Source of the DNA: a phage
Length of the DNA: 64,000 bases
Strand: one strand, 5' to 3'
Assembly: GCA_030980935.1 (NCBI GenBank)
Contig: GCA_030980935.1_3059.1
Shown here: one piece after another, positions 2,924-48,082 of the stretch
Layout of the letters: each line of letters starts with the position of its first letter
How positions within the stretch are numbered: position 1 is the stretch's first letter
Program-made: the position numbers and the translations under genes
Notes under the pieces: model-generated
The model's input: the letters and a program-made list of their open reading frames with translations, nothing else
Database searches by the model: none
Told to the model about the DNA's origin: nothing

Positions 2924-3198
2924 TCGAAATAATCTTCAATTTCGTAATCATGGACGTAAATCATTATAGTTTTTAATACATCATCAATACTTTTTCCTGG
3001 AGCTGGAATTACGTAAAAATATCCTGCTTTTGAGAGGTCTTTATAAGTTCCAACCAAGAAATCATTATTCTCGAGATGTAGTTCTTCAACTAATTCATTA
3101 ACAATTGAGTGGTATAAATTTGGTAGAAACTTATATAGCTTTTCTAGAATATCAATTTTGATTGTGTATTGAACCACGGACTGAGAATCAATAATCAT
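2920..3198 (-). CDS. arn: Arn-like anti-restriction protein (92 aa)
   Basis: 92 aa acidic ORF immediately upstream of asiA, matching size and position of T4 Arn. Confidence 0.6.
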   Translation of the reverse strand: MIIDSQSVVQYTIKIDILEKLYKFLPNLYHSIVNELVEELHLENNDFLVGTYKDLSKAGYFYVIPAPGKSIDDVLKTIMIYVHDYEIEDYFE

Positions 3199-26408: not shown

Positions 26409-26927
26409 TTAATAGCCTCGATCTTGACGAGCGAAGTTTTCGGCATTTTTCAGATAATAAAGTTTAAAGATTTCTTCAGCTGACATTCCAAGAGCAATGA
26501 ATTTATTCATGAAAAAGTGAAATTGGTCAATTAGTTCAAATTTAATTTCAAGTTGATCTTCAGGAGATAAATCTTGAATTTTCTTGGATTGCATTTCAGA
26601 ATAACGTTTCTTCCAAGGTTTCCATACAGCAGAAGCTTCTTTTTCACCATTACTCATACCACCAAGAGAAGTATATAGCTCGCGAGTTTCATCTGCGATA
26701 TAATCGTCTTGGTTTCGCAACCAAGCAAGAACTTCTCCTGCAGTTTCAAGTGAATCAGGATGACGATTTGTTTCTGGTTTATCATTAGCCAAACGAATCT
26801 GTAAATGCCGCTGCATGTCAAGCATAACCTGCAATGGGTCAATACTGTGCATAATATACTCAGCATATGCACGATTTGCTTTATCAACACCTTCGATCAA
26901 ATGAGCACATTCATTAAAGTGAGCCAT
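26409..26927 (-). CDS. 56: dCTPase/dUTPase gp56 (MazG-like)
   Basis: Track ORF 26409..26942; probable start at MAHFNECAHLIEG... Confidence 0.8.
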   Translation of the reverse strand: MAHFNECAHLIEGVDKANRAYAEYIMHSIDPLQVMLDMQRHLQIRLANDKPETNRHPDSLETAGEVLAWLRNQDDYIADETRELYTSLGGMSNGEKEASAVWKPWKKRYSEMQSKKIQDLSPEDQLEIKFELIDQFHFFMNKFIALGMSAEEIFKLYYLKNAENFARQDRGY

Positions 26928-26987: not shown

Positions 26988-28327
<1,340 letters not shown>

Positions 28328-33052: not shown

Positions 33053-33415
33053 TTAAAAGAATTTAAACTTTTTCTTTGACCTTTTATTAAATGCATCTTG
33101 TAGTTGCATTGTAATACATTTTTCTACATGAGGAGCTAACTCAGCTTTTCTTTCTTGGTCAAGAACAGCAAAGTCCATTACGACTTTTCCATTAACCCAA
33201 TCTAATTTTGTCACATACACAATGTGTGTAGAACCATCTTCTAGTTTAATGACAATCTCCTGGATAACATTTTCCATGGCAGATTTAATTATCTTAAGAG
33301 ACTCATTAAAAAGACGTTCTTTTCTTTCTTCTTCCCCCTCCGAAGAGGGGGATTCATCGATAATTTCTAGATCTAAATCTAAATCATCTTTATTCATTAA
33401 ATTCTTCCATATCAC
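33053..33415 (-). CDS. 40: gp40-like protein (120 aa)
   Basis: Position between 41 and uvsX; acidic N-terminus; synteny-based. Confidence 0.5.
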   Translation of the reverse strand: MIWKNLMNKDDLDLDLEIIDESPSSEGEEERKERLFNESLKIIKSAMENVIQEIVIKLEDGSTHIVYVTKLDWVNGKVVMDFAVLDQERKAELAPHVEKCITMQLQDAFNKRSKKKFKFF

Positions 33416-34571
33416 TTAACTGCTCGAGGTCAGTTTCTAAATCAGCAGCTGATTTACTTTTACTTTCTGGAGATTTAAATTTTTCAACCTTTGAGTTAAT
33501 CAATTCATCAACTTCAGCTTCAACAATTTCATTACTATCAATAGCACCTAACTGATAAGCACGTTTAATAGCATCTCGGAATGGTTGATGCTTAAATAAA
33601 GGACCCCAGAATGTAGTGCAGTTGGTATCTTTTGCACGCCAAGATTTTTCTTCGCGAATCATCTCGCCGGTTTCTTCATCAAGAAATTCACGAGCATACC
33701 AACCATTTTTAGGTTTTACCACGAATCCTAATTCTAGAGCCATATCTAACAATCCAGAATAAGGATCGATACCGCCGTCAAATTTAACATCAATAAAGAA
33801 TTTACTTTTTTCTTTAACGGTACGAGATTTTTCTACATTTAGAACAAATTGATACCCTTGAAGATCAGAACCATCTTTAATTTGACGTTTACCGATAATG
33901 AATACAGTATCAGCCGAATACATTACGCCTGTACCACCTGTCATCACGGTTTTACTAAACATTTCAATTGTTTCAATTGTATGGTTAACCGCAACACATG
34001 GAATATTTTTAATGCTAAAATAAGGAGTAACAATACGGAATAATGACTTCAGTGATTTAGCACGAGTCATATCTGCCACAGATTTTTCATTCAAGGCGTC
34101 TTCCGTTTCTTTCTTAGAAGCCATATTACCGATTGAGTCGATGAATACAATAACTTTTTCACCGCGCTCAATAGCTTCAAGCTGATTCACCATATCAATT
34201 TTCAGCTGTTCAACTGACTGGATTGGCGTATGAATTACTCGTTCCGGGTCAACTCCCATGGATCGCAAATAAGCTGGAGTAATACCAAATTCGCTATCAT
34301 AGAATAGACAAACCGCGTCAGGATATTTGTTCAAATATGCCGCAACCATAGTCAAAGACATATTTGATTTAAAGTGTTTAGAAGGCCCTGCGAAAATAGT
34401 TAAACCAGACTGCATGCCGCCATCAATCGCACCAGAAATAGCAATATTAAGCATTGGGATTTTTGTACGGATTACATCCTTTTCATTAAAGAATTTAGAT
34501 GTAGTCAGTTCAGCAGTCATTTTAGAAGTGGAAGCTTTAATCAAACGGGATTTTAAATCTGCAATAGACAT
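33390..34571 (-). CDS. uvsX: UvsX recombinase (RecA/Rad51 family)
   Basis: 393 aa; RecA-fold Walker A (GPSKHFKS). Confidence 0.9.
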   Translation of the reverse strand: MSIADLKSRLIKASTSKMTAELTTSKFFNEKDVIRTKIPMLNIAISGAIDGGMQSGLTIFAGPSKHFKSNMSLTMVAAYLNKYPDAVCLFYDSEFGITPAYLRSMGVDPERVIHTPIQSVEQLKIDMVNQLEAIERGEKVIVFIDSIGNMASKKETEDALNEKSVADMTRAKSLKSLFRIVTPYFSIKNIPCVAVNHTIETIEMFSKTVMTGGTGVMYSADTVFIIGKRQIKDGSDLQGYQFVLNVEKSRTVKEKSKFFIDVKFDGGIDPYSGLLDMALELGFVVKPKNGWYAREFLDEETGEMIREEKSWRAKDTNCTTFWGPLFKHQPFRDAIKRAYQLGAIDSNEIVEAEVDELINSKVEKFKSPESKSKSAADLETDLEQLSDMEEFNE

Positions 34572-34648
34572 TCATTTTTTCCATAGGCATCATTATATTT
34601 TCCTCACTGGTTAAAGATAGAGTAATTATAACACAATAAATTTAGGCA

Positions 34649-35497
34649 TTAATCAACTGCTATTGGATGAATAGCATTAAACTTATGAAATGCTTCTGAT
34701 TTTTCTTTACGCGAAACACACATGCGAAGAACCTTTAATGGCTCGTCTTCTTCACCCAACGATTTTCGTTTTTCAATATTCGATGTTTTCCAACGAGCTT
34801 GCTCTGGAAACTCTCTATTGATCTGCTCAAGCGCTCTATTATGTTTAGAATTACTACGAATTGAACTGCACCCGCCAGGAGCTTGTGCTTTTCCAGATAC
34901 AACCAGATATTTGAACAAGGCCAAATGCGGATAACCTTGATTAATTAAATTGAGAAATGCATACATATCTTCGCACAAATCAATTTTTCCATACCCAATT
35001 TGTTCTGTCGTAAGTTTTCCAAGGTCATACCATGTATTCGTGAATCCATATGAATTTTCACGATAATTACCCCAAGATGAAGTAATTTTAAAAATTGGTA
35101 GGCGAGCATGACCATGATAATACCCGCAATCCATGGCATCTTCGACGTATTGAATCAATTCATAGAACTGTTCATGAGTCAATTGATTGACTTTATCTAC
35201 ACATCGGCGATCATCTCTTTTTCGCATTGAACTCATACGAATAGTAGTATCATCGTCAATCATCCAGATTCGTTGACCTGCATACATATCAGTAATTGCT
35301 TTACGAGTACCGGCAATTCCGTTTACATCATCAGGAATAGTTATAATTTTAGCTCTAGACCCATAAGCATCATAATAAGCTTTTTCTTCGTGTTCACGCA
35401 CTACAATATGGGGTTCATAATCAGTCGGAAACATATCAAGGGCAGAAACTGCCCCAACACGCTGATAGCTTGGAATTACGAATTGAATCATTTCCAC
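34649..35497 (-). CDS. DxD-type glycosyltransferase at the locus where T4 carries beta-gt (282 aa)
   Basis: GT-A-like features: N-terminal IPSYQR, DxD (IWMIDDDTT); does not resemble remembered T4 beta-gt. Confidence 0.55.
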   Translation of the reverse strand: MEMIQFVIPSYQRVGAVSALDMFPTDYEPHIVVREHEEKAYYDAYGSRAKIITIPDDVNGIAGTRKAITDMYAGQRIWMIDDDTTIRMSSMRKRDDRRCVDKVNQLTHEQFYELIQYVEDAMDCGYYHGHARLPIFKITSSWGNYRENSYGFTNTWYDLGKLTTEQIGYGKIDLCEDMYAFLNLINQGYPHLALFKYLVVSGKAQAPGGCSSIRSNSKHNRALEQINREFPEQARWKTSNIEKRKSLGEEDEPLKVLRMCVSRKEKSEAFHKFNAIHPIAVD

Positions 35498-36228
35498 TCA
35501 CCGTTATAGTCTTTTTTCACAATATGAGTTTCGCCAGTATTCCACCAATGATCAACCAAGTAAAAATGACGAGAATATACATGAAGACTTCCAACATTCC
35601 ATATAATAGAACCTGCTTTATACTGACGAGTTGAATCGCCTGCATTCAAATCAGATACTAATTTATCTAGTACGTATTTTTGCCATGCGTAATCATTACG
35701 GAATCCGAAGACCACGTCATTTGAGCGCATGCTTACTACTGCATTGACTTTCTTATCACGAATCAGGTACTGTACTGTATTAGTACACATGAAATCTGAC
35801 ATACCGTCTTTATTGTAATCAAATTGCATGGATGGACGAGTATAAATCATGATACCACGTCGAGAATCAGGATTTTGACCAAGTTCAGCTAAACACATAT
35901 CATACTGGGCATAGTTATCTTCTGACCAAATAGCCCAACCATAATTCGAGTTAATTTCGCCTTTAGAAGATGCTACCTGCTGCCAAATCTTTGGTGTTTC
36001 ACCTGGAATATCTTTAACAAACAGACTTTGAGACTTGTACCATTCAAGTTCACGCTGAATGTATTCATCATTAAGAGCACCAAAAATAAAAGGTTCATCT
36101 GCTACAAATGATGCGCCAATAATTTCAATAGTTTTAACACCGGTTTTATCAACTACGAAATCTTTTTCTTTTAATGCAAGCCCCAAATGAAGACGGATTT
36201 CTTCAACTGTCATAGAGTCACTAATCAT
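35488..36228 (-). CDS. 42: dCMP hydroxymethylase gp42
   Basis: 246 aa; thymidylate-synthase-like fold. Confidence 0.9.
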   Translation of the reverse strand: MISDSMTVEEIRLHLGLALKEKDFVVDKTGVKTIEIIGASFVADEPFIFGALNDEYIQRELEWYKSQSLFVKDIPGETPKIWQQVASSKGEINSNYGWAIWSEDNYAQYDMCLAELGQNPDSRRGIMIYTRPSMQFDYNKDGMSDFMCTNTVQYLIRDKKVNAVVSMRSNDVVFGFRNDYAWQKYVLDKLVSDLNAGDSTRQYKAGSIIWNVGSLHVYSRHFYLVDHWWNTGETHIVKKDYNGEWK

Positions 36229-36235
36229 TTAAACC

Positions 36236-36385
36236 TCAATTGATACATTCATATTTAAATTGTAACAGTAATAAACCCCAACCTAAAATAATAGTTGGAA
36301 TCATAAGAGGAACCGTTACACTATAGTATATACTTATTATAATCATCAAGATTAAAAGCAACACTGTTATAATTTTGCTTTTCAT
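36236..36385 (-). CDS. Small membrane peptide imm.1-like (49 aa)
   Basis: Hand-translated hydrophobic ORF; ATG overlaps imm stop (ATGA). Confidence 0.4.
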   Translation of the reverse strand: MKSKIITVLLLILMIIISIYYSVTVPLMIPTIILGWGLLLLQFKYECIN

Positions 36386-37031: not shown

Positions 37032-37280
37032 TCAAATGCAAGTAGTAATTACTCCAGTAGTGCTTATGCAGGTATTACCCATTTGCACACCTAAAGATCC
37101 ATTTGTATTCACATGAAGATTATCATCAATTTTAACTGATATTTTACCATTAGTGTGAATAACGGTGCTAGATTTAATCACAGGTTGAGTATCATTTTCA
37201 ACACTAACAAATGGAACTGCTACTAATGCAACTAAACAAACTGCTAAGCATCCCATAACAATTTTCATTTTATTCTCCAA
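37032..37280 (-). CDS. Secreted or membrane small protein (82 aa)
   Basis: N-terminal signal-like segment; directly downstream of early promoter cassette. Confidence 0.5.
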   Translation of the reverse strand: MENKMKIVMGCLAVCLVALVAVPFVSVENDTQPVIKSSTVIHTNGKISVKIDDNLHVNTNGSLGVQMGNTCISTTGVITTCI

Positions 37281-46864: not shown

Positions 46865-46881
46865 AAGGGCCGAAGCCCTTT
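46865..46881 (-). terminator. UUCG-tetraloop hairpin after alpha-gt
   Basis: GGGC cgaa GCCC overlapping the stop codon. Confidence 0.5.
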
Positions 46882-48082
46882 ATTTTGTAATAATGTCAAA
46901 CTGTTCTTTAAAGCAGAAGCTTGAATCTTGGTGCTGATACAAAAATTCATATGCTTTTTCTCGCTCACGGTCATAAAGAGCTCGGTCAGATGACAGTTCT
47001 TTAATACGTTCAAATGTTGATTCCATGTCATTTTCATCAAACCAAACGATACCGCTATCATGCGAAATTAGCGGAGTATTATCAACACGGAATTTTAAAT
47101 TTTCGCCAGTAGATTTCCAAAATACCGGAATTGTTCCACATGCACCAAGCTCGAGATGAGTATATTCTAAAGAACGTTGTAGATATTTTTTATCCAACTT
47201 ACTCAACTGATAACCAAAACCGGATTTACTCATACGTTCAAGCATTTCGCTATTTACATAACGGTCAAGAATTTGCGTTGGCAAATTAGGAGCAATTTTA
47301 ATTTGGTCTACTTGATGAAGACGATAATACTCGTATGGAATTCCTTTTTCTTTAATAGGAATGAACGCTGGAGAACGTTCCAGACCTTCCATAATAGTAC
47401 TTAGTCCTGCAGGTTTAAGATGTTTTTCGTGAAAATCAAACATCTGATAAAAACCTTTCCATGTAGTCGTACGACCAATCCAACGGTTGATATTCATGTT
47501 AATTTCAGAAACATCTTTCCAGTAGGTTGATCGAACCTTCGCAATATCCATAGGAGGCTGAAAGTTATATACGGTCGGTGCTTCTTCAATATCATCAAAC
47601 AGAGAAACTGTTTCTGGATACCATTCTTTCATCAAAACTTTATTAAAATCGCCATTATCAGAATGACTAAAAATAACATCAGCTCGACGAACAGTTTCTT
47701 CTAATCCCAAATTTCGACGCAAAGAAAGAGAAGAATGGTCATGCTGATAAACTACAACACGAACAGAAGGTTTAATGTTATCAATAATTTTTTTATAGTT
47801 ATTAATAGTGTCTTCTTCAACCGAAGTAGCAGGAACTGAATTGATAATTAGAATATCACAATCATTTACCAGCTTAAGTGTTTTATCGTATTCTTTTGCC
47901 AATAAAACCGGAATTGAAAATGATTTATAATCATGCGCGCAATTACGAGTAAATGATTTATCTTTAGCATAAACCAAAGTCACTTCATGACCATTTTTAA
48001 TAAACCAATCACGTTGCTCAAGAGAAAATTTAGTTACACCGCAACCTTCAAGACCTCGAGCCATAAAAATGCATACTTTCAT
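46880..48082 (-). CDS. DNA alpha-glucosyltransferase
   Basis: 400 aa, MKVCIFMARGLEGCGVTKFSLEQRDWFIKNGHEVT..., GT-B-like; matches T4 alpha-gt. Confidence 0.85.
   Translation of the reverse strand: MKVCIFMARGLEGCGVTKFSLEQRDWFIKNGHEVTLVYAKDKSFTRNCAHDYKSFSIPVLLAKEYDKTLKLVNDCDILIINSVPATSVEEDTINNYKKIIDNIKPSVRVVVYQHDHSSLSLRRNLGLEETVRRADVIFSHSDNGDFNKVLMKEWYPETVSLFDDIEEAPTVYNFQPPMDIAKVRSTYWKDVSEINMNINRWIGRTTTWKGFYQMFDFHEKHLKPAGLSTIMEGLERSPAFIPIKEKGIPYEYYRLHQVDQIKIAPNLPTQILDRYVNSEMLERMSKSGFGYQLSKLDKKYLQRSLEYTHLELGACGTIPVFWKSTGENLKFRVDNTPLISHDSGIVWFDENDMESTFERIKELSSDRALYDREREKAYEFLYQHQDSSFCFKEQFDIITK

Follow-up and report, generated by a model that had tools for sequence, protein, structure and literature searches.

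A probable T2/T6-type beta-alpha glucosyltransferase gene between gene 42 and uvsX of a T-even phage

The beta-glucosyl-HMC-alpha-glucosyl-transferase genes of phages T2 and T6 were originally cloned, reportedly, by Winkler and Rueger (Nucleic Acids Res, 1993). Their products (ba-gt), glucosyl-DNA beta-glucosyltransferases, are classified under EC 2.4.1.28. Classical enzymology (cited in PMC13216743) has described the attachment of a beta-1,6-linked glucose, with UDP-glucose as donor, to the alpha-glucosyl-hmC of DNA. The DNA of a T6 delta-ba-gt mutant carries alpha-glucosyl-hmC only and is degraded in vitro by the Brig1 glycosylase (PMC11078745), and that of an independent T6 delta-g-gt mutant has been found to contain about 75% alpha-glucosyl-hmC (bioRxiv 10.64898/2026.02.25.707755). 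HPLC/MS of ten wild Tequatrovirus phages carrying alpha-gt and a TAGT gene identified alpha-5-gentiobiosylmethyl-dC and no beta-glucosyl form. The DNA of QOTSP, one of these ten phages, consists of about one-third hmC and two-thirds gentiobiosyl-hmC, with no beta-glucosyl-hmC (PMC13390438). The gentiobiosyl-hmC share amounts to 5% in T2 and 72% in T6 (bioRxiv 10.64898/2026.02.25.707755); QOTSP and others are likewise near 70%, and the Durham group (EL, BGP and Geo) reaches about 40% (PMC13390438).

These enzymes belong to a wider family, TAGT (TET-associated glycosyltransferase, Pfam PF20691), a GT-A family which is sister to GT2 and was named for members adjoining TET/JBP dioxygenases, the enzymes that make the hydroxymethyl base on DNA. 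In T4 (NC_000866), the order of genes is uvsX - segA - b-gt - 42 - imm, b-gt encoding a beta-glucosyltransferase of 351 aa, and TAGT has been reported to be syntenic with T4 beta-gt by the authors of the Tequatrovirus HPLC/MS study (PMC13390438). Mosigvirus (RB69) DNA is arabinosylated, with di-arabinosyl products (PMC13390438); this system is likewise a cytosine hypermodification of T-even type in which a second sugar is possible.

The gene and its family

The window, i.e. the whole stretch of 64,000 nucleotides analyzed here (contig GCA_030980935.1_3059.1), had been described in an initial annotation as encoding a 282-aa protein with the motifs IPSYQR and IWMIDDDTT between uvsX and gene 42. 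ORF and Pfam analyses bear this out: the minus-strand ORF 34649..35497 spans 282 aa from a GTG, starts with MEMIQFVIPSYQR and contains both motifs. The likely start lies further in, at ATG 35491, which gives 280 aa rather than 282. In the raw sequence, this ATG forms an ATGA overlap with the stop codon (TGA) of gene 42 and is preceded, 5 nt upstream, by the Shine-Dalgarno-like GGTGAG, while no Shine-Dalgarno-like sequence precedes GTG 35497. The resulting 280 aa is also the length of the annotated T2, QOTSP and EL genes. On these three grounds (overlap, GGTGAG and length in relatives) the GTG start was dropped. The gene, its motifs and its partners are as follows:

34649..35491, minus strand: ba-gt (also g-gt or TAGT) coding sequence, likely start ATG at 35491, 843 nt, 280 aa
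34649-34651, minus strand: TAA stop codon of ba-gt
35459..35476, minus strand: N-terminal IPSYQR motif, codons 6-11, resembling the GT2 nucleotide-sugar-binding motif
35249..35257, minus strand: DxD-type motif GAC GAT GAT (Asp79-Asp80-Asp81), closing a predicted beta-strand
35488..36228, minus strand: gene 42, dCMP hydroxymethylase, upstream neighbor (Pfam Thymidylat_synt, E = 1.3e-15)
33390..34571, minus strand: uvsX, downstream neighbor (Pfam T4_UVSX_C and RecA)
46880..48082, minus strand: alpha-gt (Pfam PF11440 AGT, E = 2.4e-236)

The protein matches PHROG 842, "beta-glucosyl-HMC-alpha-glucosyltransferase", over its whole length (E = 2.1e-89) and Pfam PF20691 over profile positions 2-205 of 205 with 39.1 bits (E = 1e-9), above the gathering cut-off of 27.5 bits; a search of NCBIfam gave no match. 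Direct alignment across the full 280 aa gives about 99% identity with both T2 and T6 ba-gt. Only two residues differ in T6 (Y40N and D55G) and two in QOTSP (D24N and H106R), and three differ in T2 (R11H, H106R and P251S, in two independent T2 records). The gene is also widespread, since a megablast search with the 2.3-kb locus matched 611 phage records (identity 95-99% in 430) and tblastn with the protein found a homologue encoded in 689 phage records, far more than chance could account for. Many of the matching records annotate it as beta-glucosyl-HMC-alpha-glucosyltransferase or beta-alpha-glucosyltransferase.

With the T2/T6 genes, the window gene shares its 280-aa length, its position between 42 and uvsX, the ATGA overlap and an alpha-gt partner, and the order 42 - ba-gt - uvsX is identical in the window, T2 and T6. 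Gene 42 is annotated as dCMP hydroxymethylase in records that are 98% identical, and alpha-gt has a full-length match to the crystal structure of T4 alpha-gt (PDB 1xv5, E = 5e-257), so that the canonical alpha-gt and the gp42 noted initially are both present. Collectively, these data support that the gene is, with high confidence, a T2/T6-type beta-alpha glucosyltransferase (glucosyl-DNA beta-glucosyltransferase), predicted to make gentiobiosyl-hmC from alpha-glucosyl-hmC. The present analysis shows the identity, the synteny, the conserved motifs and the companion genes; the reaction and its product come from the literature. By every feature that sequence can show, the gene belongs to the T2/T6 ba-gt family. 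Comparison with T2/T6 beta-alpha-gt was the first check proposed in the initial annotation; such high identity to a characterized transferase means known biology. Indeed, published papers and hundreds of annotated GenBank records already report the gene and its standing in for T4 beta-gt at this locus.

The initial annotation also read the enzyme as a DxD-type GT-A transferase in place of the GT-B beta-gt, a reading which is now supported by the above-cut-off match to PF20691, an invariant DDD and the lack of similarity to T4 beta-gt described below. In an alignment with homologues from CC31 (66% identity), Klebsiella phage KP1 (65%), Serratia phage Muldoon (48%) and an uncultured Caudoviricetes (22%), D79, D80 and D81 are invariant down to the most distant sequence, as are I6, P7 and R11 in IPSYQR. 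The distant homologues have 36 invariant columns, R11 and DDD among them, and the window enzyme keeps every one; PF20691 is matched by all five proteins (the window enzyme and the four homologues). By analogy with GT-A enzymes, the DDD presumably binds metal and diphosphate. A single-sequence AlphaFold2 model of the 280-aa protein (pLDDT 39.5, pTM 0.30) was too poor for a fold search, and no solved relative was found among PDB sequences by phmmer and small-profile hmmsearch, even at E <= 10. Since these two tests gave nothing usable, the GT-A assignment is based on Pfam and on a published model of the T6 protein, which is 99% identical to that of the window. A 2026 paper already gives TAGT a GT-A fold and places it at the position of T4 beta-gt. 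The full-profile match and the invariant DDD are common to the window enzyme and the TAGT family; in contrast to the TET/JBP-linked members, hmC would be supplied here at the nucleotide level by gp42, and the acceptor would be a sugar already present on the base.

The locus compared with T4, CC31, Muldoon and RB69

The T4 gene order on which the initial annotation relied proved right as regards the 351-aa beta-gt between uvsX and 42, but the interval also contains segA. This homing-endonuclease gene, present in T4, is absent from 34572..34648, the spacer between uvsX and ba-gt in the window. Within these 77 nt, upstream of uvsX, TGTTATAAT makes a good -10-like sequence.

T4 beta-gt resembles ba-gt in its locus between 42 and uvsX, in the kind of donor and in its action on phage hmC DNA, but the two differ in fold (GT-B versus GT-A), in length (351 versus 280 aa) and in acceptor (bare hmC versus alpha-glucosyl-hmC). 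No detectable similarity was found between their sequences, the best BLASTP alignment covering 10 residues with E = 0.28, so that kinship with T4 beta-gt was rejected, and PF09198, the T4 beta-gt family, gave no match to ba-gt at E <= 1. The 64-kb window encodes no beta-gt of T4 type and no TAGT besides this one. The suggestion that the sugar decoration is not T4-like is thus borne out at the level of sequence by the near-identity to T2/T6 ba-gt, for which the literature gives gentiobiosyl-hmC as product. Among the second-sugar options that had been put forward, a gentiobiosyl-type beta-alpha-gt fits this identity, whereas "another sugar" finds no support.

In Karamvirus CC31 (3001..4910 of L006) and Serratia phage Muldoon (3001..4949 of L007), a homologue of TAGT lies next to a beta-gt of T4 type in the 42-uvsX interval; in Klebsiella phage KP1 the TAGT occurs without beta-gt. 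As TAGT and beta-gt stand side by side in CC31 and Muldoon, ba-gt and beta-gt are not alleles of each other. The glycosyltransferases of the 42-uvsX locus vary, making it a hot spot; what is seen in T4 and in T2/T6 seems to be different outcomes of gene loss from, or insertion into, this one shared site. For some TAGTs, the first sugar is presumably beta-linked.

As for RB69, also named for comparison in the initial annotation together with T4 beta-gt, no relation was found either. Unrelated genes occupy the interval from uvsX to the gp42-like gene, where tblastn detected no TAGT homologue (best E = 2.0), and a relation to anything at the syntenic RB69 locus was rejected. Base and sugar chemistry both differ between the Mosigvirus system and that expected for the window.

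Expected DNA modification and competing readings

Based on near-identical enzymes, a pathway can be proposed for this phage. Gene 42 would provide hm-dCMP, to be incorporated in phage DNA as hmC, and alpha-gt would glucosylate some of the hmC residues in alpha linkage, generating the acceptor of ba-gt. The latter would then use UDP-glucose to add a second glucose, beta-1,6-linked to the first, leading to gentiobiosyl-hmC. The expected DNA is a T2/T6-like mix of bare hmC, alpha-glucosyl-hmC and gentiobiosyl-hmC, without beta-glucosyl-hmC, in a ratio that is itself inferred. One further gene may contribute:

26409..26927, minus strand: probable gene 56, dCTPase/dUTPase, with codon 6 (ATG) of the listed ORF as presumed start

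Its match to Pfam dUTPase_2 is weak and below the cut-off (21.6 versus 22.9 bits), and phage EL has, at the syntenic position, a gene of equal length annotated as dCTP pyrophosphatase. Partly from this synteny, 26409..26927 is probably gene 56, which would keep unmodified dCTP out of phage DNA.

The enzyme of the window is nearest to the high-gentiobiosyl type (QOTSP/T6-like). Nevertheless, as the gentiobiosyl share ranges from 5% to about 72% among enzymes that are 97-99% identical, the proportion in this phage is not predictable. The window also contains a pair of genes that bears on this question:

26988..27767, minus strand: Dam-type N6-adenine methyltransferase (Pfam MethyltransfD12, E = 8e-51)
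27767..28327, minus strand: restriction-like ORF of 186 aa, overlapping the Dam gene by one base (PHROG 8706, of unknown function)

The 186-aa ORF has a weak, sub-threshold match to the DpnII restriction endonuclease (E = 0.0099) and shares 99% identity with EL_034, called a "restriction enzyme-like gene" in PMC13390438, where a dam plus restriction-like pair was reported to be specific to the intermediate-gentiobiosyl Durham group. It is found in 164 phage records, one from T2 among them, and is always annotated as hypothetical. The combination of a QOTSP/T6-like enzyme and an EL-group dam/restriction-like module in one window adds to the uncertainty on the sugar ratio. Judging from sequence, the two genes could be a GATC methylase/nuclease pair in a T-even phage.

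This module is one of the arguments for a first alternative, namely that ba-gt is weak or inactive here, as it seemingly is in T2 and some T6 stocks, the DNA then containing essentially alpha-glucosyl-hmC and bare hmC. T2 indeed has the gene yet only about 5% gentiobiosyl-hmC, two T6 GenBank records carry lesions in it (MH550421, an amber at codon 10, and AP018814, DDD reduced to DD), and the Durham EL group, which shares the dam and restriction-like genes with the window, is lower in gentiobiosyl-hmC. Against this, the reading frame is intact in the window, 36 of the 36 invariant columns are kept, and the translational coupling to gene 42 through the ATGA overlap is preserved. Furthermore, the closest enzyme with measured chemistry, that of QOTSP, gives about two-thirds gentiobiosyl-hmC while differing at two residues. 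A weak or inactive enzyme is thus very improbable.

Still less probable, to the point of being negligible, is an enzyme of the same family with another specificity, using a different sugar or glycosylating bare hmC directly, so that the DNA would contain another product than gentiobiosyl-hmC: TAGT does occur without alpha-gt or beta-gt in 288 of 753 phage genomes (PMC13216743), where solitary TAGTs may glycosylate bare hmC, and the pairing of some TAGTs with beta-gt at the CC31 and Muldoon loci indicates that specificity is not uniform across the family, but no more than 2-3 residues separate the window enzyme from those of T2, T6 and QOTSP, which have gentiobiosyl-hmC as product, no invariant column is affected by these differences, and the alpha-gt partner of the window enzyme is present.

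Allelic variation and host defense

Among T2/T6-type enzymes, allelic variation in ba-gt might itself set the extent of gentiobiosylation in T-even phages. Position 11 is Arg in the window, T6, QOTSP, EL, CC31, KP1, Muldoon and the 22%-identical homologue, and His only in T2, whose enzyme has thus lost the invariant Arg11 that the window allele retains. The T2 records with His11 (IPSYQH) are LC348380 and AP018813, and codon 11 corresponds to 35459..35461 of the window. As for the other T2 differences, R106 is common to the high-gentiobiosyl phage QOTSP and S251 lies in a variable tail; since Arg11 is otherwise invariant, R11H stands out as the candidate. We propose only tentatively, and as a rather unlikely explanation, that R11H specifically accounts for the contrast between T2 (5%) and T6 (72%). 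If this were true, the Arg11 allele of the window would predict a T6-like, high-gentiobiosyl genome.

Two T6 records deserve mention. In MH550421 (ba-gt at 3138..3980 of L003), codon 10 has changed from CAG to the amber TAG and the gene is annotated from an internal Met; in AP018814 (ba-gt at 2507..3346 of L001), one GAT of GAT-GAT-GAT is missing, leaving DD instead of DDD. The window allele has neither lesion. These may be laboratory stock variation in ba-gt or sequencing errors, and they matter for experiments which assume that T6 DNA is gentiobiosylated.

Importantly, the initial annotation related the sugar to the evasion of host restriction, and the disaccharide does alter which host defenses can attack phage DNA. 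Gentiobiosyl-hmC has been shown to block the Brig1 glycosylase in vitro (PMC11078745), and published work indicates that it is resistant to BapA removal yet remains open to cleavage by GmrSD/BrxU-type enzymes. Knowing whether a phage has alpha-gt with ba-gt or alpha-gt with beta-gt helps to predict its host range and its behavior against defense systems. Such inference from ba-gt is already routine for Tequatrovirus genomes, and the present gene adds nothing new in this respect.

Two small ORFs were also observed beyond gene 42, both occupying gaps that are unannotated in T4:

36236..36385, minus strand: very hydrophobic ORF of 49 aa between gene 42 and imm, its stop overlapping the imm start (PHROG 3610)
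37032..37280, minus strand: ORF of 82 aa located between imm.1 and gene 43, its N-terminus signal-peptide-like (PHROG 4189, like T2_046)
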